This document shows, piece by piece, positions 1 to 47,152 of a stretch of DNA of 64,000 nt. The stretch is from Escherichia phage arall. The translations under genes and the position numbers were made by a program. Below the pieces are notes generated by a model. The model did no database searches. It was not told the DNA's origin and saw only the letters and a program-made list of their open reading frames with translations. Position 1 is the first letter of the stretch. Each line of letters opens with the position of its first letter. The DNA is taken from sequence record MN850584.1; one strand, 5' to 3'.

Positions 1-7
1 CGAAGCC

Positions 8-349
8 ATGTCTGAACGTATTTTAGAACTAGAAGATTTGTGTGGAGAGGCTTATCAAGTGGTTGGTGCGCTGGCTTGTGAAGCACAAATGTTTGAAACT
101 TCAGAACAAGTTTCACATATGTTAGATAATTTGAGTGAATGTAAAATGATTCATGATGATGTATTGCCATTTTGTTGCAATGTTAACAAAACAGAGCAAA
201 CACAAGATTCAGAAACAGTTTATGTTCCGCTAATGTGTGTTCCAGATCATCTAAAAGGTGTATTCTCTTGTAAATGGTCGCTGTTGAGCGTTACTAATTG
301 TGGTGAAAACTATTCTGCCAACATTGAATTGCTAAAACACGTTAAATAA
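8..349 (+). CDS. hypothetical early protein
   Basis: ORF track, 113 aa; first gene of + early block; no recognisable motif. Confidence 0.5.
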   Translation: MSERILELEDLCGEAYQVVGALACEAQMFETSEQVSHMLDNLSECKMIHDDVLPFCCNVNKTEQTQDSETVYVPLMCVPDHLKGVFSCKWSLLSVTNCGENYSANIELLKHVK

Positions 350-359
350 GGAGAGTAAT

Positions 360-764
360 ATGTGGTCTGTTAAAATCAAATATAATGCGCAGTATTATGG
401 TGGAAAGCCTTACGAAGTTGTTATTTGTGACTGTATCTCTAAAGAAGTTGCACAGCTTTGTGGCGCTGGTGTTAGTGAAGCTATGAACAAAATGCATAAC
501 TCTACTGTGCGTTACCTGGATCAAGATATTCCAGAAGATGTAAATGACTATGCTTACGAAATTATTTACAGTGAAGGTAAAAAGCTCTCTATTGAAGATG
601 CACTTAAAGCACTACCTGCTATGTGCAACCCGACACCAGAAGCAGTTAAAGAGATTTTACCAGAATCCAACCCCGATGAATATGCCTCTATGGTTGCTTC
701 AGATATGTGGAATCTCTGTCGAGAAACTATGATTAAAAATCTGGTGGAAATGGCGCATGAGTAA
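360..764 (+). CDS. hypothetical early protein
   Basis: 134 aa ORF; RBS GGAGAG 6 nt upstream of ATG. Confidence 0.6.
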   Translation: MWSVKIKYNAQYYGGKPYEVVICDCISKEVAQLCGAGVSEAMNKMHNSTVRYLDQDIPEDVNDYAYEIIYSEGKKLSIEDALKALPAMCNPTPEAVKEILPESNPDEYASMVASDMWNLCRETMIKNLVEMAHE

Positions 765-975
765 AACGCACTTTATACATCCGTTTGATCCAAAGAACAA
801 GGCGGTTATACACCGCCGTTGGACTGAAACGCGCATTACAAAATGTCCTGTGCCAGCAGCACAGGAATATAACAAAACATATAAAGCAGAATTTGTGGAG
901 TACACCTTTGTAAATAACAAAGGGAAGGAGGTTTATGTTCCAGAATACTGCCTTTGGATAAAATGGGAGGAATAA
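757..975 (+). CDS. hypothetical protein
   Basis: 72 aa ORF, start overlaps upstream stop (operon-style coupling). Confidence 0.5.
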   Translation: MSKTHFIHPFDPKNKAVIHRRWTETRITKCPVPAAQEYNKTYKAEFVEYTFVNNKGKEVYVPEYCLWIKWEE

Positions 976-1142
976 TGCAAACATTTTTTATCGACAAGTT
1001 TAATAAAAATATGAACACGTGGATGGCAACATTCACTATGCAATTTGCGTCATTTAAAGAGGCTCAAGAATGGTGCGATCAGCACAAGGATTTTGATTTT
1101 TACTATCAAATTAATACAAATCTTTCTCCAGAGGATAAATAA
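954..1142 (+). CDS. hypothetical protein
   Basis: 62 aa ORF; RBS GGGAGGAA upstream. Confidence 0.5.
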   Translation: MDKMGGIMQTFFIDKFNKNMNTWMATFTMQFASFKEAQEWCDQHKDFDFYYQINTNLSPEDK

Positions 1143-1143
1143 T

Positions 1144-1488
1144 ATGTTGGCTGATATTGAAATCCTTATGTACCGCCAAGGTATGATCAAAATGTGGCTG
1201 GATTCTTTTAGCAACATATACTGCACAGTGCGATCAGCAGAGGAGCGTAAAACGCTTATTTTATCTGCTATTGTTGATAAACAACGTTTCTTCAAAGAAG
1301 TTTTGCAAACAGGCTTCTCCGATGCAGGAGTAGAGATTGCAACTCTTAGTCTTGGGGTGCTGTCTTACTTGGAATCCGTTGTTTTATATGTCTTCTCTTT
1401 AGAAGAACACTTGCAATTTGAAGCATTAAAACTTATCTTAGACGCTGCAATTGACATAGAACAAAATCGAATTGATTCTTTTGAATAA
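1144..1488 (+). CDS. hypothetical protein
   Basis: ORF track 1045..1488 trimmed to in-frame ATG 1144 directly after upstream stop. Confidence 0.5.
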   Translation: MLADIEILMYRQGMIKMWLDSFSNIYCTVRSAEERKTLILSAIVDKQRFFKEVLQTGFSDAGVEIATLSLGVLSYLESVVLYVFSLEEHLQFEALKLILDAAIDIEQNRIDSFE

Positions 1489-1504
1489 AAATAAGGAGAA
1501 AACC

Positions 1505-1963
1505 ATGCAAGAGGTTAAACATTATCCACATGGTCGTAGTTTTGTAGCTGTATGGCATGTTCCTGCTCGTAATGAACTGTTTTGTGCATCTTTTCATTAC
1601 AAAGATGGACAATATTTCACCTATGACGAGACGATGGATGATTTTATCCCAGAGTGCGATCATGGGTATACACCAATGTTCTTTAAACGTATGAAAGCTC
1701 GTTTCTTCGTTACAGATGTTGATGGTGAACCTACTTGGCACATCGAAGAAGATTGGCAAGATTCTGTGGATATTAAAGAAGCCCCAGAATGGGCTACACT
1801 ACTGGTACACGTGAAAACCCCTACCCTTGACATTATGGCGTGGGTTAATCATGATGATACCCATTACCAATACATAAACAGTAGCACAGAGATTTCTGGT
1901 GAGATTATTGGTCGTTGGAAGCCTACGAATCAGGTTGCTATTGTCGGATATAAGACAGTATAA
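1505..1963 (+). CDS. hypothetical protein
   Basis: ORF track 1472..1963 trimmed to ATG 1505 preceded by AAGGAGAA. Confidence 0.6.
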   Translation: MQEVKHYPHGRSFVAVWHVPARNELFCASFHYKDGQYFTYDETMDDFIPECDHGYTPMFFKRMKARFFVTDVDGEPTWHIEEDWQDSVDIKEAPEWATLLVHVKTPTLDIMAWVNHDDTHYQYINSSTEISGEIIGRWKPTNQVAIVGYKTV

Positions 1964-1964
1964 T

Positions 1965-2159
1965 ATGAAAAGTAGCGTAGATTGGGATGATTTATCCGCT
2001 TTTGAAAAATGGTTCTTAGGTAGTGGTTGTTATGCAGATGGGGATCTCGAAAGAGATCCTTCTGGAAACTACATTATGCCATTAACCCAAGGTTTTTATG
2101 AGTGCTGGTGCGCAGCACAAAACAACGTACTGAATAAGGAGACAACACAATGCAATTAA
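1965..2159 (+). CDS. hypothetical protein
   Basis: ORF track 1899..2159 trimmed to ATG 1965 after upstream stop. Confidence 0.45.
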   Translation: MKSSVDWDDLSAFEKWFLGSGCYADGDLERDPSGNYIMPLTQGFYECWCAAQNNVLNKETTQCN

Positions 2160-2389
2160 ACATCGGACAACCAATTTTTGATGCAGATACTGGTCAATAT
2201 GCAGTGATTGTTGCTCGTATGAGCGGTGATGACTTTATTGTTTCAGAACTACTGGAATCAGATCCGCAACTGCGTGTGGTTTGTGACCTATATCTTCGAG
2301 ACGAAAGTGATCGCATTGCACTGAAAGAAGATGGTATGCTTTACTACACCTGGACTAGAGATCCTGGTGTAAAGGAGGTAGAGGTATAA
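2150..2389 (+). CDS. hypothetical protein
   Basis: 79 aa; RBS AAGGAGA upstream. Confidence 0.55.
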   Translation: MQLNIGQPIFDADTGQYAVIVARMSGDDFIVSELLESDPQLRVVCDLYLRDESDRIALKEDGMLYYTWTRDPGVKEVEV

Positions 2390-2688
2390 TGGTAAGGAAT
2401 AGGGGTTTACATAAAAGAAGACACCTTACTTACTGGCATCGCAAAGTACATGAACCTGTATCAAAGAAAGAATGGCAATACCTTCCTTATGGAAAGGAGC
2501 GAAGGAAGTATTTGTTAGCTCATTTAAGGGTACATGGTTCGCTTCCTGTTAACAGTAAGTGGCAATTGCAAACAGCTTATGACGAAGATATGAAATATCT
2601 GTTAAAGAGAGGCATTATTTGCCTTGTTAAGATAGGACGATGGAAATCTCGTCAATCTTATATCGTACTTAAACAGGAGAAACGATGA
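2389..2688 (+). CDS. hypothetical basic protein
   Basis: 99 aa, K/R-rich; RBS AAGGAGGTAGAGG upstream. Confidence 0.55.
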   Translation: MVRNRGLHKRRHLTYWHRKVHEPVSKKEWQYLPYGKERRKYLLAHLRVHGSLPVNSKWQLQTAYDEDMKYLLKRGIICLVKIGRWKSRQSYIVLKQEKR

Positions 2689-2936
2689 ATATCAAAGATG
2701 TTGTAGCATACGTAGAAGATGAAGTTAAAAACCATACAAGTTTACTGAAAGTAATGGTTGTGGTTAAAGATGGTATTGGACAAGTAAACGTACAACATGT
2801 CTTATCTGACACTGTATATAATGTGTTTGAATGTAAAGAAACACCTCATGGAGTACGTGTGGTTTATATTGATAACAATTTCAAAGAATGTGTGAGACAT
2901 ACCTTAGAAAATGAACTAAGGATCACAATCTTATGA
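2685..2936 (+). CDS. hypothetical protein
   Basis: 83 aa; RBS AGGAGAA upstream; start overlaps upstream stop. Confidence 0.55.
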   Translation: MNIKDVVAYVEDEVKNHTSLLKVMVVVKDGIGQVNVQHVLSDTVYNVFECKETPHGVRVVYIDNNFKECVRHTLENELRITIL

Positions 2937-3106
2937 GTTATTATGTTGTACCTTATGCCAATAAGTGGAGAGTAAGAGAAACTTGTTTTCTGTTCTCCTG
3001 GTGGGCTACATTCGGAGATGGCTGTGGAAATGATACAGGGAAGCCTGTAGAGTATGACACAAAAGAAGAATGTGAACAGTGGATAAAATTAACACAAAGA
3101 TGTTGA
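2933..3106 (+). CDS. small Cys/Trp-rich protein (57 aa)
   Basis: ATG overlaps stop of upstream gene (ATGA); below ORF-track size cut-off; translated by eye. Confidence 0.35.
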   Translation: MSYYVVPYANKWRVRETCFLFSWWATFGDGCGNDTGKPVEYDTKEECEQWIKLTQRC

Positions 3107-3159
3107 CACGATCTTAACTTCTTGTTAGTATCAATGTGTACTAACGATAAGGAGGGTTT

Positions 3160-3384
3160 ATGAAGTCTGTAAACAAGTTGCAACAATTTTTGTTATCAAC
3201 AGCAATCTTTTTGCTTTTGTTAATTGGTATTCTGTATGGTGCATCTAACTTATACAATCTACATAATGATGTAGAACAGAATAAAGAGAAGTGCATCATT
3301 CTAAAACACAAGAAACAAGCAGAAGATTTCTTAAAGAATAAGTGTTACAACTACATTGATTATGAGGAGACAAACAATGATTAA
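3160..3384 (+). CDS. small membrane protein
   Basis: 74 aa; hydrophobic segment LLSTAIFLLLLIGILYG; RBS AAGGAGGG upstream. Confidence 0.55.
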   Translation: MKSVNKLQQFLLSTAIFLLLLIGILYGASNLYNLHNDVEQNKEKCIILKHKKQAEDFLKNKCYNYIDYEETNND

Positions 3385-3619
3385 AGAATTAGGTATGCGA
3401 GTATACAGTGAGTGGACTCCAAGCAATGGCCCAGGAGTTGTTGCAGCTAAATGTATCAATGGTCGTATTGAGTACCTGGAAGGGTATGAAGATAATGAAG
3501 AATTAGTAGATTATGCTAAATCTTTTATTGAAGATGATACAGACTTTATTGTATTATATGATACAGGAGAGTTAGAGTATGGATATGATGGAGATGGGGA
3601 TATCTTTGAACTTCAATAA
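3377..3619 (+). CDS. hypothetical acidic protein
   Basis: ORF track 3356..3619 trimmed to ATG 3377 after GAGGAGACAAACA. Confidence 0.55.
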   Translation: MIKELGMRVYSEWTPSNGPGVVAAKCINGRIEYLEGYEDNEELVDYAKSFIEDDTDFIVLYDTGELEYGYDGDGDIFELQ

Positions 3620-3826
3620 GAGTAGTAAGTAAGGTATAAAGAGTATATAGTTAGTTATAGAGTTAGTAACATTACATATACTCTTTCCATGTATAACATG
3701 GAATATTCTCTACCTCGCTATCGCTCGGTATATAAGATTAGGGTAGCATGTTTTTTACGAAAAGTAAAACTGTTTATACCGATTGATAGCAGGTTTTTAA
3801 TAGATTCTATCTGTGAGGAGTAGAAA

Positions 3827-4045
3827 GTGTACAAATTATATAAAGGAAAAGATAAGTTTACGGGTAATACATCTGGTTTCTATGTAACACCACGCGGCGT
3901 TGCCGTATTTGATTGGATTCCTGGTACTCCAGATCGTGAAATGATCTCTCTTGTAAAACTGTCGGAACAAGAGTACACTTACGGTGACATTACAACATTC
4001 TATTCTCGTGCAGAAAATCCAAAACTGATTGCGGAGTGGGAATAA
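3827..4045 (+). CDS. hypothetical protein
   Basis: 72 aa; GTG start after GAGGAG; follows 200-bp promoter-like intergenic region. Confidence 0.5.
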   Translation: MYKLYKGKDKFTGNTSGFYVTPRGVAVFDWIPGTPDREMISLVKLSEQEYTYGDITTFYSRAENPKLIAEWE

Positions 4046-4308
4046 TGGTTACACGATATGATTTAGAGGTGTACAGCCAAGGTGCTGCTGGTCAATGTGA
4101 TATTGTACCAGATCCAGAAGGAGACTATGTTCTTCTTGCTGATTACAACAAGCTAGAAGAAAGACTTCTGGCTGTGTATGCTAAAGAGAACAAAACAATC
4201 TGTCCTTATTGCAATGGAATGGGTTGGGTGGTTGCAGATGTTGGACAAATGTATGAGTGTGTACCTTGTAAAACCACAGGCTTTATTGAAAAGGATACTG
4301 ACAAATGA
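4036..4308 (+). CDS. zinc-ribbon protein
   Basis: 90 aa; CPYCNG...CVPC two CxxC pairs. Confidence 0.55.
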   Translation: MGIMVTRYDLEVYSQGAAGQCDIVPDPEGDYVLLADYNKLEERLLAVYAKENKTICPYCNGMGWVVADVGQMYECVPCKTTGFIEKDTDK

Positions 4309-4553
4309 CTGTAGCAGATAAAATGAGAGAACTGGCAGAAAACGCAGAACTTAACAAAGCAAAGGAGAGTTTACAAAACATCTACGCGTATATTGAAAGA
4401 GCAGCTAAAGATGGAGACAGAGAAGCCGCTATATACACGCTTTATCCAACTTTTGTAAAAGTTAGTTTGGATGCTGAAGGTTTTTCAACTTTTATTGATA
4501 CAGAAACATCTCATTACGATGAAAACTTTACTCGAATAGTTATTCGATGGTAA
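4305..4553 (+). CDS. hypothetical protein
   Basis: 82 aa; start overlaps upstream stop. Confidence 0.5.
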   Translation: MTVADKMRELAENAELNKAKESLQNIYAYIERAAKDGDREAAIYTLYPTFVKVSLDAEGFSTFIDTETSHYDENFTRIVIRW

Positions 4554-4658
4554 ATTTCTGATATTTATGCGCCCTGGCTACCTGGGCGTAATAAATTCAG
4601 CTTATATTTGATCCGCGCCTTCGGCGCTTAGGCAAAGCCACGCCACATAGGAGAGTTT

Positions 4659-5069
4659 ATGTTCAAATGGTTAAAAGAGTTTCTAACATCTTTGGCAGAA
4701 CCTAAGCAAGATGTTATTAAAAGCTCTATCACAGGAAAACCGCTTGTTATAGTTACAGGCGTCTTTGGTCATGGGTTTTCTCTTAAACAAACAGACATAG
4801 GTTTACAGGGATGTTTGATTAGTTTTAGAATCACTCAATTAGGAGATAATAGACAAACAATCTTAGACCTTTTCAATGGGGAGTTTGATGATTATTTATC
4901 TAAGAGTGGTAAAGAACGTCTGATCGAACATATAAAACACCGCTATGAGCATGGTGGTTACTACTTAGATACAAAACGTAATGCACAAGGTGATCTTGAC
5001 ATAGTTCGTATAGCGTGGGATAATGAATTTAAAACTAAACTTGGTAAACTTCTGGAGGAGTTGTGGTAA
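4659..5069 (+). CDS. hypothetical protein
   Basis: 136 aa; RBS AGGAGAG upstream. Confidence 0.55.
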   Translation: MFKWLKEFLTSLAEPKQDVIKSSITGKPLVIVTGVFGHGFSLKQTDIGLQGCLISFRITQLGDNRQTILDLFNGEFDDYLSKSGKERLIEHIKHRYEHGGYYLDTKRNAQGDLDIVRIAWDNEFKTKLGKLLEELW

Positions 5070-5245
5070 ATATTAAAACAGGTGATATTGTACGTCTTGC
5101 CAGTGAAGAAATGTTAATGACTGTAATGGTATCTACCTATGATACTTGCGAAGTGGTATGGTTTGATGTTAATGAACAACTACAGAAAGCTACATTTGAT
5201 AAACGTATGCTTCGTAAAGTTGAAGAAGTGAAGGAGGAAGAATAA
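5063..5245 (+). CDS. hypothetical protein
   Basis: 60 aa; RBS GGAGGAG upstream. Confidence 0.45.
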   Translation: MVNIKTGDIVRLASEEMLMTVMVSTYDTCEVVWFDVNEQLQKATFDKRMLRKVEEVKEEE

Positions 5246-5246
5246 T

Positions 5247-5459
5247 ATGACAATGTTGCTTCGTATGTTTGTGTTTCTTATGTTCTGGATTATCGTTGGT
5301 AACGGTATTGTGTTTTTGATTTTTCCTGAAGTAATGACAGGTAATGAAAATAAGGCAGTGCCTTACATTATGCTTATCGGTTACGGTATTGGTACACTCG
5401 GATTACTGTTTGCTGACTGGTTAGTCAATACTTTGTTCTCTAAGTACAGGAACAACTAA
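5247..5459 (+). CDS. small membrane protein (two hydrophobic helices)
   Basis: 70 aa; FVFLMFWIIVGNGIVFLIF and LIGYGIGTLGLLFADWLV; RBS AAGGAGGAAGAA. Confidence 0.55.
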   Translation: MTMLLRMFVFLMFWIIVGNGIVFLIFPEVMTGNENKAVPYIMLIGYGIGTLGLLFADWLVNTLFSKYRNN

Positions 5460-5460
5460 T

Positions 5461-5733
5461 ATGTCGGAAAAATTACCTAATGTTTTCTTTTGTTTTGTAG
5501 ATTGTGTTACACAAGAAATTATAGTTGACGAAGAAGGTATGTTTACTTATTTTGCATCTGAAGAAGAGGCAAAACTGTCAGCTATGAAATGTATAAGCCA
5601 ATTGTCAGTACCTGCTGTCAACAGGTTCGGTATTGCACAGGTGTATAAAACAGTAACAGAGTTTACACCAGATCGAAAACTAACTTTTCTTAACGTTCAC
5701 TTTGTTTGTAAGTTTAGTGAACTACGACATTAA
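5461..5733 (+). CDS. hypothetical protein
   Basis: 90 aa ORF. Confidence 0.5.
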   Translation: MSEKLPNVFFCFVDCVTQEIIVDEEGMFTYFASEEEAKLSAMKCISQLSVPAVNRFGIAQVYKTVTEFTPDRKLTFLNVHFVCKFSELRH

Positions 5734-5746
5734 ATCAGGAGTGAAA

Positions 5747-6346
5747 ATGAAAGAATATTGGAGTGGTGAGAAGGGCTTACTAAAGCCAGGAATGCTTTTG
5801 CGAGTAAAGAACATGTTGATCACACAGGATTACATAATGCCTAATCCTGGGGCATTAGTAGAATTCCTTACTGCACGAGATCAACCTGGGGTTGGTGAAA
5901 TGTGGATTGTAACGTGGATATCTCTTGATGGTAAGTTGCGCGTTGCTCCTATCGACCCAAAACATTTGGAATCTCCTTACGCCAGCATTGATTCTCGGAT
6001 CATAGATTTGGCTAGAGTTTATAAGGCTAGGACTGGTGTAGAATTAGATGTAGAAATTTTAAATCAATGTATTGACTTCTTACCTGAAAAAGTGCATAAT
6101 GCACAACAAGAAGATAGCGGTTTAGAAGTTATTCTTCTGAATGATGGGATGTTCTCTGGTTTGGCATCTGTAGATTTTCCAATAACATTAAGATTGTTAC
6201 CTGGGGAATACGTACTGGATGAAACAACTATTGCTATATCCTCTAAAATTTTAGAACTCATTCCAGGTGCAAGGTGTGTTGGTGATACCTCTTCCTTGCT
6301 GTTTACTCTGAATGAAGAAGCCATTATAGTTAAAAAGGAGAAGTAA
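5747..6346 (+). CDS. hypothetical protein
   Basis: ORF track 5702..6346 trimmed to ATG 5747 after AGGAGTGAAA. Confidence 0.55.
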   Translation: MKEYWSGEKGLLKPGMLLRVKNMLITQDYIMPNPGALVEFLTARDQPGVGEMWIVTWISLDGKLRVAPIDPKHLESPYASIDSRIIDLARVYKARTGVELDVEILNQCIDFLPEKVHNAQQEDSGLEVILLNDGMFSGLASVDFPITLRLLPGEYVLDETTIAISSKILELIPGARCVGDTSSLLFTLNEEAIIVKKEK

Positions 6347-6502
6347 ATGATGACGTTTATTGTTGGTGTTGTTGTTGGTTATTTTGGTCACAAGTACCAG
6401 GATGTTATCATCGCTAAAGTTGACGAAGTAATCGAAAAATTTAAACACTAATTTTCTAAAAGGCTGTACTATTGTGCAGCCTATCTTTCAAAGGAGAGTA
6501 AA

Positions 6503-6676
6503 ATGTTCAAAGATACCAATTATAAATGTGTACATTGTGGTAAATCTTTTGGTGATCACCAAGCTAAAACATTCAATTGTCCACGAAAAGGGCGAGGTAG
6601 CTTTAAAGGTTTTAATCCATCCCACGTTTATTCTCCCAACTACGAGAAACCAGAAGAAGAAAAATTTGTAATCTGA
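6503..6676 (+). CDS. small zinc-finger-like protein (57 aa)
   Basis: ATG after AAGGAGAG; CxxC...C pattern (KCVHCGK...NCPRKG); replaces track ORF 6474..6671, which is in another frame. Confidence 0.45.
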   Translation: MFKDTNYKCVHCGKSFGDHQAKTFNCPRKGRGSFKGFNPSHVYSPNYEKPEEEKFVI

Positions 6677-6685
6677 GGAGGCAAT

Positions 6686-6973
6686 ATGGAACTAGTACAA
6701 GAAGTTTATGAAAAACTAAAAGAAGAGAATCTTGATTGGCCTGAACATGCTCTTATTGTCGTCAAAGATACTAATGGTGAAATAAAATTCTCAAGTGTAA
6801 GTGAAGACGATGTTGTTTTAAGTCCTACAGGATATTATATGAGAGGTGTTACGTGCCTATTCAACACCAAAGTGTATCCTGAAGTTAAACTTAGTTACGG
6901 TGAACCTGATCATCCAGAAATCGTTACACGTAATGAATATGAAAATTATTATTTTGCTCGTGAAAGCAAATAA
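6686..6973 (+). CDS. hypothetical protein
   Basis: 95 aa; RBS GAGGAGG upstream. Confidence 0.6.
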   Translation: MELVQEVYEKLKEENLDWPEHALIVVKDTNGEIKFSSVSEDDVVLSPTGYYMRGVTCLFNTKVYPEVKLSYGEPDHPEIVTRNEYENYYFARESK

Positions 6974-6981
6974 GGAAAGCT

Positions 6982-7305
6982 ATGCAAAAAATAAACACTG
7001 GTTCTCGTCCTAAACAGAAGCAAACAAAAGCAAGGGTATCTTATGTTGACAACTCTTGTTATAATTTCAAAAATGTTAAAGAAGTTATCATTGATGAAAA
7101 AGAAGGTTTGATTCACATTTCATCTGAACGTTTGAAAGGTAGTGTTACTCTTCGTGAGAATGTATCTATACCTATGAAAGTTGTGGCTACACTCTGTGTT
7201 GATAAACCAGATGTTGTTAACTACTATGTGTTCCGTGATAGTTGTATTTCATTACATAATAAGATTTTTAAATCTTCGCACGTTAAAACAAAACACATTG
7301 TATAA
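6982..7305 (+). CDS. hypothetical protein
   Basis: 107 aa; followed by terminator hairpin. Confidence 0.55.
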   Translation: MQKINTGSRPKQKQTKARVSYVDNSCYNFKNVKEVIIDEKEGLIHISSERLKGSVTLRENVSIPMKVVATLCVDKPDVVNYYVFRDSCISLHNKIFKSSHVKTKHIV

Positions 7306-7310
7306 CACAT

Positions 7311-7334
7311 AAACCCGCTTCGGCGGGTTTTCTT
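7311..7334 (+). terminator. rho-independent terminator
   Basis: hairpin CCCGCTTCGGCGGG followed by TTTTCTTG. Confidence 0.6.
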
Positions 7335-7379
7335 GTATGTGTGTTTTTATTTGTCTTAGCATAAACAATAGGAGGTATT

Positions 7380-7601
7380 ATGTCTGTAGTTGTAGAAGGT
7401 AGTATTGGTTTCTTAGTAGATAACCCTCACCCTTTCGTGGTTAAGGTTCATATTCAAGAAAAGGTAAGCAACAATACGTGGTTGTGCTTGTTAGATAGTA
7501 AGATACACTCTTATACAGAGGTTTATCTTCACACTTGGCAAATTGGTACGATAACAGCAGAGGATGAATTGATAATTGAACTATATGAACGAGATCTGTA
7601 G
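7380..7601 (+). CDS. hypothetical protein
   Basis: 73 aa; RBS AGGAGGT upstream. Confidence 0.55.
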   Translation: MSVVVEGSIGFLVDNPHPFVVKVHIQEKVSNNTWLCLLDSKIHSYTEVYLHTWQIGTITAEDELIIELYERDL

Positions 7602-7679
7602 ATGACTTTATTAGAGAGTATCGTAGTGTTAATCATCTTTATCATTGTTGTCATAGGATATTTTACAGAAGACTAAAAT

Positions 7680-7716
7680 AAAGCCCCTAGAATCGCTTCT
7701 AGGGGCTTTTGTTTGC
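7680..7716. terminator. bidirectional terminator between convergent + and - blocks
   Basis: hairpin GCCCCTAGAATCGCTTCTAGGGGC flanked by A-run and T-run. Confidence 0.6.
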
Positions 7717-7776
7717 ATTAGATAGGGAAACGTATTACTAAAATAAAAAGTGCGTTAGAATGCGTTACAGGAGGTT

Positions 7777-8034
7777 TTAAGAATGCATAAAATCTTCTTC
7801 AGGGCAGGTTGAGAGATAAGAGATGCACGTTGGGACAACAACAACATTATCTTTAAGGTTTGCAACCAAGCCTTTTGTGATTCCAGCCACTGCCCCGTTA
7901 ATATCTGCTTGACGGATACCAAAACCTTGTTGTGCGGATAGATAACAAAATCCCTCACCTTTCTGTTGATTATTATTGAAGTAATAAACGTAGTGCATCA
8001 TAAAATGGTCTTTAACGATTTGTTCTGTGGTCAT
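7777..8034 (-). CDS. hypothetical protein (last gene of - block)
   Basis: 85 aa; RBS AGGAG upstream on - strand. Confidence 0.5.
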   Translation of the reverse strand: MTTEQIVKDHFMMHYVYYFNNNQQKGEGFCYLSAQQGFGIRQADINGAVAGITKGLVANLKDNVVVVPTCISYLSTCPEEDFMHS

Positions 8035-8047
8035 AATATTCTCCTAT

Positions 8048-8068
8048 AAGAAAAGGGGCTTTCGCCCC
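8048..8068 (-). terminator. rho-independent terminator
   Basis: GGGGCTTTCGCCCC hairpin with U-tract on - strand; same hairpin recurs at 19344 and 32435. Confidence 0.55.
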
Positions 8069-8077
8069 TTGGTCAAG

Positions 8078-8890
8078 TTACTTAGTCAAATGATCTTCTA
8101 TCATTTTTATGAAAGCAGGATTGCTAAAAGCATCTGCTGCCTTTTCTCTGTAAACAAAGACTCCTCTATCTTCGTAAAGAAGAGTTTCTTCGTAATTAAT
8201 TCCTGGGTTAACAACAATCATTTTTGTACCCATATTAAGTGCAGGGAATAATTCCCAATTAAAATTGATAACTTGGTTTGAACATCCTACTACAACAACC
8301 AAATCTTGCATGGTCAAAGTATCAAACAAGTGAGCCATATCTGCATACAAAGGTGCAGCCTCACCAAAAAATACAACATTAGGCTTCACCCAGTTATAAT
8401 CATCTATGTTTATACTATTGTAACCAATATCTACCAGTGTTTTGTAATCTCCAGGATGCATACGGTAAACTACTTCAGGAAGATACCCGTGCACGTGAAT
8501 AACAGAATCCCTGTCCACACCTGCTCGCTCTAGTAGATCATCAACGTTTGTTGTCAAGTTTACTACTTGGTTAGGATATTCCTTAAACCACTTTGCTATT
8601 TGAATATGTGCAGCATTAGGTTGTACATCTTTAAGCTCAACACGTCTTTTGTTATAAAATTCGTGTGTTTTGGCATACAAGTCCATACCGTTCTCGTCTA
8701 CACCACCGACCACTGGAAGATCTGGAGATGTTCTCACACGATAACCTGCTTGGAAAGCTCCAATATCGCAGACCTCTTCTAAGTCATATTCTTCCCATAA
8801 GGCACGACCACTATCTGTGTCTGTTCGGAACGTTCGAATCCCACTGTCTGCACTTAAACCTGCGCCACTAACAAAAATTACTCTTCGCAT
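8078..8890 (-). CDS. Sir2-family (sirtuin-like) NAD-binding protein, no zinc-ribbon
   Basis: 270 aa; GAGLSADSGIRTFR (GAGIS/GIPxFR), TTNVDDLLERAG (TQNID-like), VIHVHG (catalytic His), VVVGCS; no CxxC pairs. Confidence 0.8.
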   Translation of the reverse strand: MRRVIFVSGAGLSADSGIRTFRTDTDSGRALWEEYDLEEVCDIGAFQAGYRVRTSPDLPVVGGVDENGMDLYAKTHEFYNKRRVELKDVQPNAAHIQIAKWFKEYPNQVVNLTTNVDDLLERAGVDRDSVIHVHGYLPEVVYRMHPGDYKTLVDIGYNSINIDDYNWVKPNVVFFGEAAPLYADMAHLFDTLTMQDLVVVVGCSNQVINFNWELFPALNMGTKMIVVNPGINYEETLLYEDRGVFVYREKAADAFSNPAFIKMIEDHLTK

Positions 8891-8901
8891 TCAATATCCT
8901 C

Positions 8902-9447
8902 TTAGTAATCATCATCCCAAGAAGATGCGTCGTAACGCTCTTCCTCTTCGAAATCCCAATTAATTTCTACTCCAAAATCTAAAAACAATTTAACAATGTT
9001 TTCTGTAGAGTAGTATTTATCATAAGCATTAGCTAGTTCCCAATACTTGTCACTCAATTTTTTATATTTAGGATCATTATAGTCATAATCTACTTTATAA
9101 CCATAATCATACATCTCTTGTTTAGCTTTAAGCATAGCTTCTGGTGTAAGAAGATTAGGGAACGGACGATTTCTTTCTTTTAACTTAGAAGCAATCCAGT
9201 TTGCAACATTCGCCACTTCACCATCTCGATTATCACCTAAACAACTTGCATAATCTCCATCTTCGTAAGTGCCTAAATCCCCACAGACCACATGTACAAT
9301 ACTTGAATACGATCCACACGTTTCACAATCTGAAAAAGTGTCTACTGTTGTAATATCAATAGATAAAACTGGTAAAGCCATAGCTTCTTTCACACAAGCC
9401 TCCTCATATAATAACATATCATCAAAACCCATATATCCTCCACACAA
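8902..9447 (-). CDS. hypothetical protein, acidic C-terminus
   Basis: 181 aa ORF. Confidence 0.55.
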   Translation of the reverse strand: MCGGYMGFDDMLLYEEACVKEAMALPVLSIDITTVDTFSDCETCGSYSSIVHVVCGDLGTYEDGDYASCLGDNRDGEVANVANWIASKLKERNRPFPNLLTPEAMLKAKQEMYDYGYKVDYDYNDPKYKKLSDKYWELANAYDKYYSTENIVKLFLDFGVEINWDFEEEERYDASSWDDDY

Positions 9448-9449
9448 AT

Positions 9450-9473
9450 AAAGCCCCTGATTGGGGCTTTGGT
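9450..9473 (-). terminator. rho-independent terminator
   Basis: hairpin AGCCCCTGATTGGGGCT with U-tract on - strand. Confidence 0.5.
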
Positions 9474-9486
9474 TAAGTTTTATGGA

Positions 9487-10098
9487 TTATACCAGACTTT
9501 TAAGGTACTTGTCAAGGGCTTCTTGATCACCTTGACAAACATAGCAACGGAAGTCTTGAGCAGAAGGTTCTTTGTCCTCGTCCCAATCCCAATAAACAGT
9601 ACCTTTATAACGTGAACCTGGGAACTCGAAATATGCCACATGAGTAATATGGTGTGGGCCACCCCAAAATTCTGTAAAAGTAAATTGAGGATACGCTGCT
9701 TTAACTGTATTCTCAAACCAAGTTTTACGATCTAATGCTTCGTTTATAAAATAAGCATGGCGTTCCATTTCATCCCAATCTTTCCAAACGCATTTTTCAT
9801 CCAGAGAAAAAACAAAATCTTCACTGTTAAAATCGTCTGTATCTGATTCCAAAATATCATAATCATGTGCACTAGGTATCCACCATCCAGCTTCTAATAG
9901 TGCTTTTGCAGGTACAAAACCTTTTTCAGCATATTGATCAAATTCTTTTACTCTACGTACAGTGCAGTATTCATCTTCACCACCAATGTCCAGCAGACAA
10001 GCACCTTTGCGTCTTGCTGCAAGACCATGTGTATCAAAAACTACAACACTACCTTCACCATCTTCACGATCTACTTGATATGCAACTTTTTGAGTCAT
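9487..10098 (-). CDS. hypothetical protein
   Basis: 203 aa ORF. Confidence 0.55.
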   Translation of the reverse strand: MTQKVAYQVDREDGEGSVVVFDTHGLAARRKGACLLDIGGEDEYCTVRRVKEFDQYAEKGFVPAKALLEAGWWIPSAHDYDILESDTDDFNSEDFVFSLDEKCVWKDWDEMERHAYFINEALDRKTWFENTVKAAYPQFTFTEFWGGPHHITHVAYFEFPGSRYKGTVYWDWDEDKEPSAQDFRCYVCQGDQEALDKYLKSLV

Positions 10099-10221
10099 AT
10101 TACCCCCAATGTATATGGGAAATTAACCAAAAGATAAATTCCCAAAAACACCAACCAAGAAAAGTTAATGGAATTATAAAAGCTATCAGAGCAGTCTTCC
10201 AGCCTTTCCACAATGTTTCCA

Positions 10222-11211
10222 CTATTCCTCCATACATTTAAGAATATGTGCAATGACAGGTATAGTCCAACCGTTGCCTAACATCTTATATGCTTGTGTG
10301 TTACTACTCACTTTAAAGTAATCATCTGGAACACCTTGTAAGCGGCAACACTCTTTAACCGTTAACTTTCTGTAATGTACGCCTTCACTCAATTTTTCAA
10401 AGGCATCTAGATATCTTCCAGGTGGAATGTAAGCTAATAGTACGTCTTTCGGCACAGTCGTGAGGCAACGAGTTTTTTCACTGTCCTGAACTTCCAAACA
10501 ATGTACCAAACGATCAGTTTTAGATGTACTACGTTTGCCATTCTCATTAATTCTACGCCCATATATTGCTGCCGGATAAAAAACCAGTTGTCTGCGACTC
10601 TTTTCAAAATACTGTTCTATATTACCACCTTTGGCATAATTTGCATCTATGCAATAAGCCTTATCTCTGTCTACAATACTATCATCTTCAATAATATCTT
10701 GCAACACTTCATTGGTAATCTCCCAGGGTTTTATTTCCCAGTTGCACCAGTATAAACGTTGTCTATTCTGTGCCGTGAAATCTGCGGAGTTAATGAATAC
10801 GGGATCAACACCTAAGTAACTTGTGATCACGTTTTCCCACTCCACTTTCATCTTAACGTTTTCAAGCATGAACTTAACATTAGGATTAAACTTTTTAATA
10901 TGTTCAAGAATTTCAACATATTCGAAGAATAGCTTAGATCGCGGATCTTGAAAGTTCAAACCCTTACCAGAAGAAGAGAAGCCTTGACACGGACTACCAC
11001 CTAACAAAAGATCAATTTCTCCCCACGGGATATCCCATTCTCTCCATTTTGTAACATCACCTAACTGAATAATATCTGGAAAATTTGCTTGGCTTTCAGC
11101 TATGGCAAATTTGTCTAATTCTGAAGCATAATATGTATCTACTTCAATACCTGCACTTTTTAGCGCAAGCATTCCTCCTGACATACCATCAAAAAGACTT
11201 AAAACTTTCAT
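10222..11211 (-). CDS. DNA (cytosine-5)-methyltransferase
   Basis: 329 aa; LFDGMSGG (motif I), GGSPCQGFS (catalytic PCQ), MLENVK (ENV). Confidence 0.85.
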   Translation of the reverse strand: MKVLSLFDGMSGGMLALKSAGIEVDTYYASELDKFAIAESQANFPDIIQLGDVTKWREWDIPWGEIDLLLGGSPCQGFSSSGKGLNFQDPRSKLFFEYVEILEHIKKFNPNVKFMLENVKMKVEWENVITSYLGVDPVFINSADFTAQNRQRLYWCNWEIKPWEITNEVLQDIIEDDSIVDRDKAYCIDANYAKGGNIEQYFEKSRRQLVFYPAAIYGRRINENGKRSTSKTDRLVHCLEVQDSEKTRCLTTVPKDVLLAYIPPGRYLDAFEKLSEGVHYRKLTVKECCRLQGVPDDYFKVSSNTQAYKMLGNGWTIPVIAHILKCMEE

Positions 11212-11213
11212 TA

Positions 11214-11624
11214 TTACTTCTTCTCCTTAACACTAGCTGGTAATTCTGCCTTGAGGCAGAAGTTTAAACGGTAAGCCTCATTCTCATTTAAAAGTACAGA
11301 TTCACACGATAACCAGAACAAGAGATCCTCAATACCAGGGCTGTTAAGCCAACAGTGCAGAAGAGAATGTTGTTCTATATCAATGTAATTTAGTAACAAG
11401 GCTTGTAAGGCGTAACTAGTTCCTGTCGTTTTTGCTTTTTCAAGGATGATATTGTGTTTACTAACAACTTTCTTCTTAAGACCAAACCATTTATTAACAA
11501 CAACAGTCTCTTCTTGTAGTTGTTTTCTTATTTTCTCACATTCTTTAACTACAATCTGCATCTTATCCACTGCTGATTGAAGTTGTTCTTTTGTTGGGTT
11601 TACAAAATAGTCACTATAGTACAT
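11214..11624 (-). CDS. hypothetical protein
   Basis: 136 aa ORF. Confidence 0.55.
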   Translation of the reverse strand: MYYSDYFVNPTKEQLQSAVDKMQIVVKECEKIRKQLQEETVVVNKWFGLKKKVVSKHNIILEKAKTTGTSYALQALLLNYIDIEQHSLLHCWLNSPGIEDLLFWLSCESVLLNENEAYRLNFCLKAELPASVKEKK

Positions 11625-11682
11625 GCTAATCTTCTCCTCTTCTGTTTTTCTGTAGTTTATTCGAAAAAACTGGTGTTGTCAA

Positions 11683-11708
11683 CAAAAAACCCGCCGAAGC
11701 GGGTTTAT
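11683..11708. terminator. terminator hairpin
   Basis: CCCGCCGAAGCGGG hairpin flanked by A-run and T-rich run. Confidence 0.5.
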
Positions 11709-11709
11709 A

Positions 11710-11967
11710 TTATTCTACAGGAACTTCTTCACCAAGAGAAACTTCTAAACGGAATGCTTTACTTTCAATACACTCACTACCTTTTAGAAAATCAAATTGC
11801 ACTATAGACTGACTTAATAGGATAGATAGAATCACATCACAATCTTCACTAGGAGCTAGATGTTTGTATTCTTCCTTCAAGGTAACATCATAAAAACATA
11901 AATCCCCTACTCCTAGTTCATCCCATCCTTCCCACGCATCTACAAAGTTAAACTCTAAACCTTTCAT
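11710..11967 (-). CDS. hypothetical protein
   Basis: 85 aa ORF. Confidence 0.5.
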   Translation of the reverse strand: MKGLEFNFVDAWEGWDELGVGDLCFYDVTLKEEYKHLAPSEDCDVILSILLSQSIVQFDFLKGSECIESKAFRLEVSLGEEVPVE

Positions 11968-14457: not shown

Positions 14458-15030
14458 TTAATGTGTTAATGAAACTGCGTAGCTAAACACAGGTTCAGAT
14501 ATTACATCGGCTACAGTAATAAAAACGTCTTCGTCTTGAGTTGTTTCTACACGACATACAGTTACACCATTCACCACGAATTCAACGCAATGTGGAATAT
14601 CTTCACAAACGAAGGTAGTGTAAGTAACACCCAAAGCATCATACAAAGATTTAACAGTGTTTGCAAGTGCCGCAGTTTCTTCTTTTTCTGAGACAATGAA
14701 TGCTGTAACAACAAGATTGTTTGCATAGTTTAGACTGTCCTCTATAGCCAATGATTTACAAGGTAGTAATGCAAAATATTTACCTGGTTTAATCAGACCT
14801 GCTTCCCATTGATTCAAAATTGCCTGGGATGGTTTAGTAATATAAAACAGATTTTCACTTGGGTTATCAATATTACTTCTGGCGATACAACGTGAAGGAT
14901 TATTATTATCAAATACATGATCAAAATCTACACAAACAGGTAAACTGAAAGGTGTGAATTTTTTACCTAATAATCCTATGGCTGATAATATGTTTGCTGT
15001 GCTTATCTTCCCGTTAAAAGCTAAACGCAT
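14458..15030 (-). CDS. hypothetical protein
   Basis: 190 aa ORF. Confidence 0.55.
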   Translation of the reverse strand: MRLAFNGKISTANILSAIGLLGKKFTPFSLPVCVDFDHVFDNNNPSRCIARSNIDNPSENLFYITKPSQAILNQWEAGLIKPGKYFALLPCKSLAIEDSLNYANNLVVTAFIVSEKEETAALANTVKSLYDALGVTYTTFVCEDIPHCVEFVVNGVTVCRVETTQDEDVFITVADVISEPVFSYAVSLTH

Positions 15031-17390: not shown

Positions 17391-18044
17391 TTAATTATCA
17401 GAGGATACTTTATCAAGTTTTTCAGAGACTGTCAATACTTTTTCTTGTGATTCTTTCATTTCTGCTAAAATACTTTCAGCTTCATCACTATCAGGATCAC
17501 CAGTCAACAGCATACTAATTAGTTGCTCCTTGCTGAAGTTCAGAATATCTTCCGCTGTTAGTTCCAGTTGTTCTTCGATCTCTTCAATAAAAGTTTCACC
17601 ACCGGAAAAAGCATCTCGTAGTTTTGCAACTTCCATCGCTTCTTCTGGAGTTGCCCCTGCATCTAAAGCTGCTAAAGCAAAATCTGCCCCACTACCAACA
17701 GCATAATAATCTTCAGTTAAAGGATATGCTCGCGTTGGATTATTACCCTCGTGCATATAAATTTTACCGTCTGGGTGAACAACCAATGCCACAAACTCTT
17801 CATCTTCTTTATCAGGATCTGACTGGATCACCAAACCTGGGATTGTCTCTTGTGCTGCTTGGCATTGTAAGTTTTGTTCGAACCAAGAAAAGAAAGTCAG
17901 GATAGAAGACAGACGTCCTGCACCACCAACAAGGTAATCCCCAATTTTACGCACTTTCTTGAAATTTAAAGTGTCTACACGACTACCTACTGTTACTTTA
18001 CCATCAGATAGAATTTTGTTATGTGTTGCAATAATTGTTGTCAT
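17391..18044 (-). CDS. HslV-like (proteasome beta-type Ntn-hydrolase) peptidase with acidic C-terminal extension
   Basis: 217 aa; N-terminal MTTII (Thr nucleophile), KKVRKIGDYLVGGAG, GSGADFALAA parallel E. coli HslV MTTIV...KKVRR...GFAGG...GSGG. Confidence 0.6.
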   Translation of the reverse strand: MTTIIATHNKILSDGKVTVGSRVDTLNFKKVRKIGDYLVGGAGRLSSILTFFSWFEQNLQCQAAQETIPGLVIQSDPDKEDEEFVALVVHPDGKIYMHEGNNPTRAYPLTEDYYAVGSGADFALAALDAGATPEEAMEVAKLRDAFSGGETFIEEIEEQLELTAEDILNFSKEQLISMLLTGDPDSDEAESILAEMKESQEKVLTVSEKLDKVSSDN

Positions 18045-23755: not shown

Positions 23756-24082
23756 TTACCAAACGTGTTGAGAAATAATAGTTTCCGTTTCAATGTTATA
23801 TTTTTCAAGAAGTTGTGCGTAGGCTTCTTTTGCATTCTTATTTAGTTGCTCAAGATCTACAGCTATACTTCCTTCGCCACCTTCTAAATAAATGCCATAT
23901 ATGCAATAAGATTCATCAGCATCATAGAAAGGAGAGATACGGCTTAAATCAAGACCTTCTTGTAAGAACCAATTAAAATCTCCATCAAATTCTTCTTCAA
24001 TTCTAGGATCTTCTCCTACAGCCTCTTCCCATTTATTAAAAGGTGCACCCTGTAACATACGCCATGCAATATCAACCCCCAC
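23756..24082 (-). CDS. hypothetical protein
   Basis: 108 aa; GTG start. Confidence 0.5.
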   Translation of the reverse strand: MGVDIAWRMLQGAPFNKWEEAVGEDPRIEEEFDGDFNWFLQEGLDLSRISPFYDADESYCIYGIYLEGGEGSIAVDLEQLNKNAKEAYAQLLEKYNIETETIISQHVW

Positions 24083-24218
24083 TATCTTCCTCCTCTTCTT
24101 TTTCTTCTGTATGAACGAAACCTAAGCCGTTACAATTCCAACAAGGAATAAATTGTTCCATACTAACAATAAAATTCCCAGTGCCGCCGCAGATAGGACA
24201 AATACTTACATCGTCCAT
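24072..24218 (-). CDS. small zinc-ribbon protein (48 aa)
   Basis: CPICGG...CWNCNG; below track cut-off. Confidence 0.35.
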   Translation of the reverse strand: MDDVSICPICGGTGNFIVSMEQFIPCWNCNGLGFVHTEEKEEEEDSGG

Positions 24219-24220
24219 TA

Positions 24221-24427
24221 TTAAAGCTCCTCAATCTTTTCTAACATCTGTTTTAACTCATTCTCTGTTAACAGAATTTCTGTGATACCATCATAAGTTT
24301 CTACCATCAGAGTAAAACATTTCTCTCCATCTGAACATACAAAAGCACCACCTTCATCTTCTGTTAAGTCAGAATTAATATCTACATCAACAAAATCAAT
24401 CATCTTTTTCTCCTTTGATAATTTCAA
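24221..24427 (-). CDS. hypothetical acidic protein
   Basis: 68 aa ORF. Confidence 0.45.
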   Translation of the reverse strand: MKLSKEKKMIDFVDVDINSDLTEDEGGAFVCSDGEKCFTLMVETYDGITEILLTENELKQMLEKIEEL

Positions 24428-25699: not shown

Positions 25700-26021
25700 T
25701 TAAATCCTCCACAATATCACACATTGCTTTTATTGTATCAATGTGTTCTCTCTCCATACCATTCTCTATGTAAGCCTTCTCTAATGCGTTCCATACACTC
25801 TTTGTGAGTAGTACAGTAACTTCTCCCTCATATCTTGCCCTGGTTAAAGCATACCAGGTAGCTATGGGATCATTGGAAGCCCATATTTCAACACTGGAAA
25901 ATTGAAAACCTGCAATATAATGACAACACCAATCGAATGTAAAATCTTTACTCTCTACCAGTGTATAATTTCCCCAGCGTCTTTGTGGTGTTGCCCCAGG
26001 TAATACAACTAATGTAGGCAT
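25686..26021 (-). CDS. hypothetical protein between nrdA and nrdB
   Basis: 111 aa ORF. Confidence 0.5.
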   Translation of the reverse strand: MPTLVVLPGATPQRRWGNYTLVESKDFTFDWCCHYIAGFQFSSVEIWASNDPIATWYALTRARYEGEVTVLLTKSVWNALEKAYIENGMEREHIDTIKAMCDIVEDLNGSN

Positions 26022-43191: not shown

Positions 43192-43532
43192 TATTCCCTC
43201 CTATACGGCTCTGTAACGAGCTAATGGCCTTTAAGATATGCAATCACCTTACCTCACAGTAAAACTCGTTACAATCGTTTTTAGGAGGTTTAGGTTGTAC
43301 TTAAAAATAATCTAAAAAGGTGTTGACAAACGCAAAAAAGTATGCTACCCTAACCCCCGAAAAACGCCGAGCGCAGCGAGGGGGTGTTATCTAATCTTGT
43401 GATACATGATCTAACAGACAACTGAGTAGTCTACATATAGCACTATGTTATGTCTATAATACTAACATACATGCTCTATACTAACAATAGATTCTTTATT
43501 AATTTTATTATTAATTAAATAATAAATATCTA

Positions 43533-44494: not shown

Positions 44495-44504
44495 ATAATA
44501 AGTG

Positions 44505-44533
44505 TTGACAATAGGGAGTATGCTTAGTAAGAT
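44505..44533 (+). promoter_or_regulatory. sigma70-like promoter (TTGACA-N17-TAAGAT)
   Basis: consensus -35 with 17-nt spacer. Confidence 0.45.
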
Positions 44534-44565
44534 ACTCCCACACTAACAAACAAGGAGACATAACT

Positions 44566-47045: not shown

Positions 47046-47121
47046 GGTTCCATAGCTCACTGACGAGAGCGCACACCTCATAAGTGTCGAGGGCAGGGAT
47101 TGTAACCCTGGGGAACCACCA
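47046..47121 (+). tRNA. tRNA-Met/Ile2 (anticodon CAT), non-canonical T-loop ATTGTAA
   Basis: hand-folded cloverleaf: acceptor GGTTCCA/GGGAACC (one A.G), D-arm GCTC-ACTGACGA-GAGC, anticodon loop CTCATAA, T-stem CAGGG/CCCTG, CCA encoded. Confidence 0.55.
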
Positions 47122-47152
47122 TTTAAAAGGAGGTGCTATGCATCTCCTATAT

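Follow-up and report, generated by a model that had tools for sequence, protein, structure and literature searches.

The host-takeover module of Bacillus phage SPO1, the pre-early region of T5 and the early clusters of T4 and T7 are dense groups of small, mostly non-enzymatic early genes near a genome end, which are read by the host RNA polymerase and many of whose products bind host proteins. A block of this layout opens the stretch of Escherichia phage arall DNA considered here (64,000 nucleotides of sequence record MN850584.1, hereafter the window): up to position 7,601, the plus strand carries a dense array of small non-enzymatic genes in a single orientation, part of a block that lies beside the genome end in phi92. 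The genes are named here after their counterparts in phage phi92. Except for gp013, which is a true homolog of T4 Tk.3, the array has no sequence relationship to the SPO1, T5, T4 and T7 clusters, and unlike these modules it lies outside the terminal repeat (343 bp in phi92). We consider it probable that the array is an early-type block of small binding proteins that is read by the host polymerase, and that it joins a conserved core to a lineage-specific part, the two being separated by a conserved, predicted antisense promoter.

The array in phi92 and its relatives

Fifty-five GenBank phage records match window positions 1-7700 at 95-99% nucleotide identity, 53 of them with at least 80% coverage. 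The best match is Escherichia phage VivaForever (98.2%), and phi92 matches at 97.5% over approximately 100% of the query. Since the right part of the window retrieves the same phages, the nucleotide matches place the window in Justusliebigvirus, among the phi92-like myoviruses of the Stephanstirmvirinae. Window positions are obtained by subtracting 4228 from phi92 positions. At the nucleotide level, the array is colinear with phi92 4230-11939, the left-arm block of Justusliebigvirus, and the gene-for-gene map agrees, running from gp011, which is cut at the window edge, to gp036 (NC_023693.1, 3891-11840). The complete plus-strand block of phi92 comprises gp001-gp036, and a distance of 356 bp separates the left terminal repeat from gp001, which starts to the right of it. 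It converges on a minus-strand block that opens with a small open reading frame (ORF) and a Sir2 gene and carries nucleotide-metabolism and replication genes.

Both the sequence and the annotation of the array are already known, and for a large virulent phage it is nothing unusual. Database entries with these genes go back to 2012, and in phi92 and more than 50 Justusliebigvirus genomes the orthologs keep one gene order, with 97-98% nucleotide identity and no material difference. In the public records the products are hypothetical proteins, apart from a few guesses from fold (a DnaJ-like zinc finger, potential regulators of transcription). In the literature searched, no gene from gp011 to gp036 has been given a function, and the 2026 paper on the phi92 virion structure does not mention gp27, gp31 or gp33. 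An early region rich in small uncharacterised proteins is expected for a phage, and the array as such matters little.

Gene content and packing

A sequence-only reading of the window had described about 25 ORFs of 35-215 amino acids, tightly packed, with overlapping stop and start codons and strong ribosome-binding sites. The array is real and the count stands, with some corrections to ORF ends. With start codons corrected by reference to the annotations of phi92 and the BASEL phages, the array has 25 complete genes, for products of 34-199 amino acids, and in addition 115 codons from the C-terminal end of gp011. The presumed first gene (8-349) starts at an internal methionine of gp011, a protein of 228 amino acids that begins to the left of the window, and the largest ORF of the sequence-only reading (214 amino acids, from position 5702) is a TTG extension of the 199-residue gp031 (5747-6346). 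Packing is as tight as had been claimed: the coding fraction is 92.8%, 10 of the 25 junctions overlap, and at 15 of the 25 the genes are no more than 1 nt apart. A GGAG, GAGG or AGGA core is found at positions -18 to -4 for 23 of the 25 genes. Gaps of more than 50 nt split the array into gp011-gp021, gp022-gp023, gp024-gp026, gp027-gp032, gp033-gp035 and gp036.

The genes can be taken as real because each product matches a PHROG family and because the ratio of non-synonymous to synonymous polymorphism (pN/pS, against phi92, PaulScherrer and SD2) is low, with a pooled value of 0.11 and 0-0.12 for most genes. Exceptions to this coding evidence are gp017 and the ORF at 3689-3823. The latter is annotated in some genomes and is probably not a gene, with 0 synonymous versus 5 non-synonymous changes, no Shine-Dalgarno core and no PHROG match. 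The low pN/pS, together with a gene order that more than 50 genomes have in common and that diverged lineages keep in part, makes it very improbable that the array is a largely dispensable nursery of orphan genes without selected function. Nearly all of the families are indeed limited to one subfamily, no product has a known function, and an exhaustive representative search found only 8 representatives of the gp031 family among 1.84 billion proteins, as such a nursery would predict.

A lineage-specific left part and a conserved right part

The array was compared with five other lineages, represented by Phapecoctavirus nieznany, a 157-kb ENA metagenome contig (found via a gp031 relative) and three IMG/VR contigs. 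In all five, gp032, gp033, gp034 and gp036 are present; gp030 and the C-terminus of gp025 are found in four, and gp024 and gp031 in three. In contrast, gp011, gp014, gp015, gp017, gp019, gp020 and gp026 are found in none. On this presence/absence pattern across six lineages, the array is a composite, with gp011-gp023 mostly lineage-specific and gp024-gp036 conserved in the subfamily. Phapecoctavirus (nieznany gp073-gp108) and the unclassified Stephanstirmvirinae-like contigs have the same architecture, in which small ORFs on the plus strand run up to a converging small ORF and, next to it, Sir2. They share orthologs of gp024, the gp025 C-terminus, gp030-gp034 and gp036, as well as the antisense promoter element described below, whereas other, unrelated small genes stand in place of the left part, and only gp013 and a few domains are common to both.

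Within the genus the picture is different. All genomes inspected (phi92, EmilieFrey, PaulScherrer, SD2) have one and the same set of genes, and gene turnover is seen between genera only, and in the left part only. With identical gene content and strong purifying selection, the term "accessory" that the sequence-only reading had applied to the region is wrong at the genus level. Conservation of the right part, above all of gp032, gp033, gp034 and gp036, makes it look like a core early module and not like arms-race cargo. The split thus indicates where host-specific functions (left) and core regulation (right) should be sought.

Three array genes have paralogs in the upstream block outside the window, in the same order (gp001/gp020, gp007/gp022 and gp008/gp025). 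Because the pairs are colinear (phi92 699-3891 versus window 2685-4308), the comparison suggests that a segment was duplicated long ago within the left-arm block. The phi92 proteins gp006 and gp010 are also paralogs.

A promoter-like element antisense to the array

The boundary between the two parts is marked by the 207-nt gap between gp023 and gp024. It holds a stretch (3683-3824) with a nucleotide conservation of 71-86% in four diverged lineages, in which the flanking proteins are 30-45% identical or absent. The stretch matches 120 phage records, by name Justusliebigvirus, Phapecoctavirus and related phages of approximately 145-160 kb, and is often unannotated there. Its core is a predicted promoter followed by a conserved box, which occurs twice in the window:

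3714-3768, minus strand: predicted promoter-plus-box copy A, antisense to the array, overlapping the spurious ORF 3689-3823
43323-43380, plus strand: second promoter-plus-box copy, in a divergent intergenic region, pointing at PRPP-synthetase-like (phosphoribosyl pyrophosphate synthetase) and NAMPT-like genes

Copy A consists of a -35 hexamer TTTACT (3768-3763), a 17-bp spacer that includes TGC (3748-3746), a -10 hexamer TACCCT (3745-3740) and the box CGAGCGATAGCGAG (3727-3714). As a sequence, 3768-3740 on the minus strand has the make-up of a sigma70-type promoter, with a TTGACA-like -35 element, a spacer of 17 +/- 1 bp and a TAnnnT -10 element. Among nine aligned copies, the -35 element is TTGACT, TTGACA or TTTACT, and the spacer, which varies in sequence, has 17 bp in eight copies and 18 bp in one. 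The segment TG(C/G)-TACCCT-A is invariant, and so is the box CGAGCG-(1-2 nt)-AGCGAG, which follows after 11-15 variable nucleotides. The CGAGCG-n-AGCGAG box is present exactly twice in the window, versus 0 expected. A third copy is located outside the window, at approximately 129.4 kb in phi92, and three copies per genome are found in each of two lineages. Three copies that lie elsewhere in genomes have the same direction as the genes beside them in the sigma70-like reading, and only in this reading. The orientation is therefore fixed, and copy A would be directed against the array, toward gp023, in all lineages.

Other readings of the element were considered. A forward-strand reading, in which the element would be a promoter specific to the phage or else an RNA that begins with a hairpin, was set aside, because it is the reverse strand that gives a canonical -35 element, a fixed spacer and an extended -10 element. 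A sigma28-like promoter does not fit since CCGAT is not conserved, and for sigma54 the spacing is wrong. The element has no Rfam match, and its motif strings are absent from the searchable phage literature.

Antisense or operator-controlled promoters that face an operon in the early region, with conserved downstream sequence, are known from lambda (oop) and P22 (sar), and promoter-primed origins are known from T4. Copy A has no sequence similarity to any of them, and differs in its three copies per genome and in its odd TGC-TACCCT -10 region. It probably helps to set the timing or the insulation of the left and right parts. The three-copy element is a concrete handle on the transcription programme of the Stephanstirmvirinae, and the one item of this analysis that is worth following up.

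Terminator-like sites number 18, versus 4.7 +/- 2.4 in shuffled sequences, and the terminators that the sequence-only reading placed at the convergence with the minus-strand block are indeed present, as two bidirectional hairpins. The predicted promoter upstream of gp022 lies in a gap (3107-3159) that is 100% identical in five genus members.

3103-3131, plus strand: predicted strong sigma70-like promoter TTGACA-17-TAGTAT with TGn, upstream of gp022
3685-3703, plus strand: terminator-like hairpin after gp023, kept in other lineages by compensatory changes (alignment)
4570-4588 and 4615-4627, plus strand: two G+C-rich hairpins in the 105-nt gap before gp027, neither followed by a T-run
6462-6481, plus strand: hairpin followed by TATCTTTC, between gp032 and gp033, as read from the sequence
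7311-7330, bidirectional: terminator-like hairpin
7680-7709, bidirectional: strong terminator with a 13-bp stem, where the array converges with the minus-strand block

Products of the right part

The array encodes binding-type modules, zinc knuckles and membrane anchors, without a recognisable enzyme. The absence of enzymatic motifs had been noted from the sequence alone, and holds: among the 25 products and full-length gp011, only gp013 (DUF7202) passes the Pfam threshold. The PHROG families of all products are of "unknown function", except for gp029, which is listed as "membrane protein". A concatenated query of all 26 products gave no match in NCBIfam, PADLOC or PDB sequences; as the positive control that this query recovered in hmmscan (DUF7202) was a strong match, the NCBIfam and PADLOC negatives hold for strong matches only. 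Separate PDB searches of gp016, gp019, gp027, gp034 and gp036, with single sequences or profiles, were empty or insignificant. No product matches a structural or replication protein; such a match is what the sequence-only reading had itself named as speaking against its interpretation. The genes of the right part are as follows:

3827-4045, plus strand: gp024, 72 amino acids, GTG start, PHROG match, kept in three of the five other lineages
4045-4308, plus strand: gp025, 87 amino acids, DnaJ-type zinc knuckle (CPYCNGMG ... CVPCKTTG), C-terminus kept in four of the five
4305-4553, plus strand: gp026, 82 amino acids, genus-specific
4659-5069, plus strand: gp027, 136 amino acids, kept in Phapecoctavirus and in one contig lineage (L010), profile without significant PDB match
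5063-5245, plus strand: gp028, 60 amino acids, DUF2158-like (Pfam E = 6e-4, 19.9 bits, just under the cut-off of 22.3), phrog_3261
5247-5459, plus strand: gp029, 70 amino acids, two predicted transmembrane helices (hydropathy), phrog_10205 "membrane protein"
5461-5733, plus strand: gp030, 90 amino acids, kept in four of the five
5747-6346, plus strand: gp031, 199 amino acids, predicted SH3-like barrel at the N-terminus, then two helices and a further beta-rich domain at the C-terminus
6347-6451, plus strand: gp032, 34 amino acids, short hydrophobic N-terminus, kept in all five
6503-6676, plus strand: gp033, 57 amino acids, C2H2-like zinc finger (C9, C12, H19 and C26 invariant; profile matches to C2H2 fingers over residues 4-21), kept in all five
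6686-6973, plus strand: gp034, 95 amino acids, kept in all five, no PDB match
6982-7305, plus strand: gp035, 107 amino acids, basic (isoelectric point, pI, 9.6), present in two of the five
7380-7601, plus strand: gp036, 73 amino acids, between two terminators, kept in all five, no PDB match

"Several CxxC zinc ribbons" had been claimed for the ORFs at 4036 and 6503, and this holds in part. The start of gp025 is most likely the ATG at 4045 and not the GTG at 4036. The protein carries a DnaJ-type pair of CxxCxGxG motifs, of which the second lacks the middle glycine, and its match to Pfam DnaJ_CXXCXGXG (15.9 bits) is below the cut-off of 32.7, as is a match to Anti-TRAP below its own. Paralogs of gp025 are phi92 gp008 and a product encoded at window 24075-24230 on the minus strand; the latter is a third small ORF with a CxxCxGxG zinc knuckle (CPICGGTG ... 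CWNCNGLG). In gp033, there is a single CxxC with an additional histidine and cysteine, and no classical ribbon with four cysteines. Its YKCxxCGKSF knuckle matches C2H2 profiles (below threshold in Pfam), and the canonical ligand spacing of this family is not found, since C9, C12, H19 and C26 do not include an H-x3-5-H pair. On these residues, gp033 is a zinc knuckle in its way of working and not a canonical C2H2 member. Weak matches to gp033 are found in jumbo phages. The small membrane proteins at 3160 and 5247 (gp022 and gp029) are confirmed by hydropathy, and gp032 has a short hydrophobic N-terminus besides.

Structure models are available for two products. The AlphaFold2 model of gp031, built from the 8 family sequences, has a predicted local distance difference test score (pLDDT) of 79. 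Its N-terminal beta barrel is followed by two helices and a second beta-rich domain. The N-terminal domain superposes on SH3 domains, and its likenesses are generic (SH3, Tudor or Agenet-like). A Foldseek search with the model returned uncharacterised phage proteins of approximately 70 amino acids only, and nothing significant in the PDB. Homolog searches with gp031 and gp027 returned only near-identical genus members, and gp027 is 100% identical to a phage arall protein. The model of gp034, from an alignment of 19 sequences from six lineages, is unusable (pLDDT 41.6). One public source names the gp034 homolog CAM6587385.1 "Profilin"; the model is too poor to test this name, and the profile of gp034 has no PDB match.

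A model for the array

In the reading that we consider probable, the block would be read by the host RNA polymerase shortly after injection, in a few operons with translational coupling and with hairpins between them. Stoichiometric action is envisaged for the products, which would bind macromolecules of the host or the phage through their SH3-like barrels, zinc knuckles and membrane anchors. Core early regulatory functions would come from the conserved right part, with gp032, gp033, gp034 and gp036 as its core. The variable left part, with its small, mostly acidic or membrane proteins lacking catalytic domains, would supply host-specific takeover, exclusion or counter-defence. What we infer in this model is the early timing, that the products act by binding, and what the antisense promoter does.

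Several points weigh against the model. Sigma70-like sites are not enriched in the array (29 versus 31 expected), the several sites upstream of gp001 do not exceed the count in shuffled sequences, and the -10 hexamer of the antisense element, TACCCT, is non-consensus. The literature searched holds no expression data or transcriptome for the phi92 phage group, so that the label "early" of the sequence-only reading is deduced rather than observed. Nor does it report, for any of the 25 products, a target, a phenotype or a toxic effect. Structure models were obtained for two products only, and that of gp034 failed.

A more specific version for the right part can be put forward only tentatively: gp030-gp036, and gp033 in particular, might redirect the host RNA polymerase, or bind the CGAGCG-n-AGCGAG box to switch between temporal classes. 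Across the five other lineages, gp033 is the most conserved product, with 75-88% identity when neighbouring genes have 23-60%, and it has a C2H2-like knuckle. The box-bearing element is found in every lineage with a locus that covers the region, and each of these also has gp033. In addition, the BASEL annotators call the orthologs of gp026, gp027 and gp033 putative transcription factors. However, these labels are unreferenced predictions, a single finger of 57 amino acids is weak evidence for sequence-specific DNA binding, and the link between the box and any protein is, on sequence, hypothetical. The right part with gp033 is the better candidate for core regulation. It appears unlikely, taken as a whole, that three things hold jointly: that TTGACT-N14-TGC-TACCCTA with the box defines a promoter class controlled by a conserved small protein such as gp033, that copy A shuts off or insulates the left part, and that at least one orphan gene of the left part represents a new takeover or counter-defence family. 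In that reading the array would not be one uniform series of early operons.

Products of the left part

2-349, plus strand: C-terminal 115 codons of gp011 (synteny with phi92 3891-4577), phrog_28884 (matched with the full-length phi92 protein), pN/pS 0.06
360-764, plus strand: gp012, 134 amino acids, acidic, phrog_6144 over the N-terminal 57 amino acids, no Pfam match above cut-off, pN/pS 0.12
757-975, plus strand: gp013, 72 amino acids, DUF7202 (PF23832, E = 4e-35), homolog of T4 Tk.3
975-1142, plus strand: gp014, 55 amino acids, genus-specific, phrog_24511, no homolog in the five other lineages
1144-1488, plus strand: gp015, 114 amino acids, genus-specific, phrog_27509, absent from the other lineages
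1505-1963, plus strand: gp016, 152 amino acids, phrog_22298, C-terminal domain common to some other lineages
1965-2159, plus strand: gp017, 64 amino acids, start uncertain, relaxed constraint (pN/pS 0.81), phrog_24254, no Shine-Dalgarno core
2150-2389, plus strand: gp018, 79 amino acids, very acidic (pI 4.1)
2389-2688, plus strand: gp019, 99 amino acids, pI 10.6, genus-specific, N-terminus rich in Arg, Lys and His, pN/pS 0.01, no Pfam or PDB match
2685-2936, plus strand: gp020, 83 amino acids, paralog of phi92 gp001 (phmmer E = 6e-12)
2933-3106, plus strand: gp021, 57 amino acids, four cysteines, phrog_15964, pN/pS 0
3160-3384, plus strand: gp022, 74 amino acids, N-terminal signal or membrane anchor (Kyte-Doolittle 19-residue maximum 2.41; signal peptide annotated in phi92)
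3377-3619, plus strand: gp023, 80 amino acids, very acidic (pI 4.1), phrog_23012, pN/pS 0

The firmest assignment in the left part is that of gp013, which scores 120 bits against DUF7202, with a Pfam gathering cut-off of 27, and covers profile positions 2-70 of 70. Its homologs are widespread in T-even phages (47-75% identity by tblastn), and several of the records are annotated as tk.3. For gp016, residues 78-136 have tblastn matches in two of the contig lineages (L007 and L010). Because gp018 and gp023 both match the same L007 ORF, they may be remote paralogs. With its basic N-terminus, gp019 is a candidate nucleic-acid binder, and gp022 is a paralog of phi92 gp007 (E = 2e-9).

Possible targets of the array products

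The sequence-only reading took the region for one of host takeover and anti-defence. Its position, single orientation, density and lack of enzyme domains do fit an early or host-interaction region, but no product matches a known anti-defence family. It appears doubtful that the array is an anti-defence island in which a number of the small proteins serve specifically to inhibit bacterial immune systems. Such an island would be in keeping with the small size of the products, the early-type position, the lineage-specific turnover of the left part and the acidity of gp017, gp018, gp023 and gp025 (pI 4.1-4.3); anti-defence genes are often reported as small and clustered. Ocr, ArdA, Acb1, Acb2/Vs.4, Tad1, Tad2, Gad1, Stp, Atd1 and NADAR are comparable in size and genomic setting, without sequence similarity to the array products. 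No known anti-defence family was found for any of the 25 products, either in Pfam and PHROGs, searched per protein, or in PDB, PADLOC and NCBIfam, searched with the concatenated query. The comparison of folds with known anti-defence proteins, proposed by the sequence-only reading, was possible for gp031 only and led to a generic SH3-like barrel.

The biology of the genus points in the same direction. The phi92-like BASEL phages (Bas60-62) are reported to be exceptionally susceptible to restriction-modification (PMC8594841), and also sensitive to a type I cyclic-oligonucleotide-based antiphage signalling system (CBASS) (10.1101/2025.07.12.664507), to KpAvs2, which senses Ksap2, that is Bas60_0220 (PMC11564622), and to ARMADA II and overexpressed Zorya II (PMC13463889). 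Together with the invariant gene content within the genus, these sensitivities weigh against a rich counter-defence arsenal. The anti-defence genes that have been reported for the genus encode a MazG-type Atd1 (PMC11724313) and a NADAR protein (PMC11257639), and no array product gives a MazG or NADAR match in Pfam. An anti-defence role is possible for the lineage-specific left part, and nothing that we found favours it. The practical value of the array is that of a shortlist: Bas60-62 carry these genes and are easy to get, and the 25 ORFs can be screened directly.

Other observations in the window

On the minus strand, at 25689-26021, between the genes for two ribonucleotide reductase subunits, there is a homolog of Bas60_0220 (Ksap2) with 97% identity. 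Ksap2 is a small protein that was shown to activate the defence protein KpAvs2 (PMC11564622). In the minus-strand block of nieznany, at 17483-17498 and beyond, a vs.4 homolog is annotated. T4 Vs.4 is the anti-CBASS protein Acb2.

The PRPP-synthetase-like and NAMPT-like genes, the latter of nicotinamide adenine dinucleotide (NAD+) salvage, are located at 43601-46299 on the plus strand, directly downstream of the second promoter-plus-box copy. The Sir2-family gene, at 8078-8890 on the minus strand, comes second in the minus-strand block. This gene and the NAMPT-like/PRPP-synthetase-like pair both touch NAD+ metabolism, which is a target of several defence systems.

The window also contains a cluster of 15 tRNA genes (47046-50101, plus strand; ARAGORN), 14 of which are above the Rfam tRNA threshold as well. 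Two minus-strand genes, at 14461-15030 and 8902-9447, have BASEL orthologs that are annotated as "putative aminoacyl-tRNA synthetase". As neither of the two has a significant Pfam match, this annotation looks doubtful.

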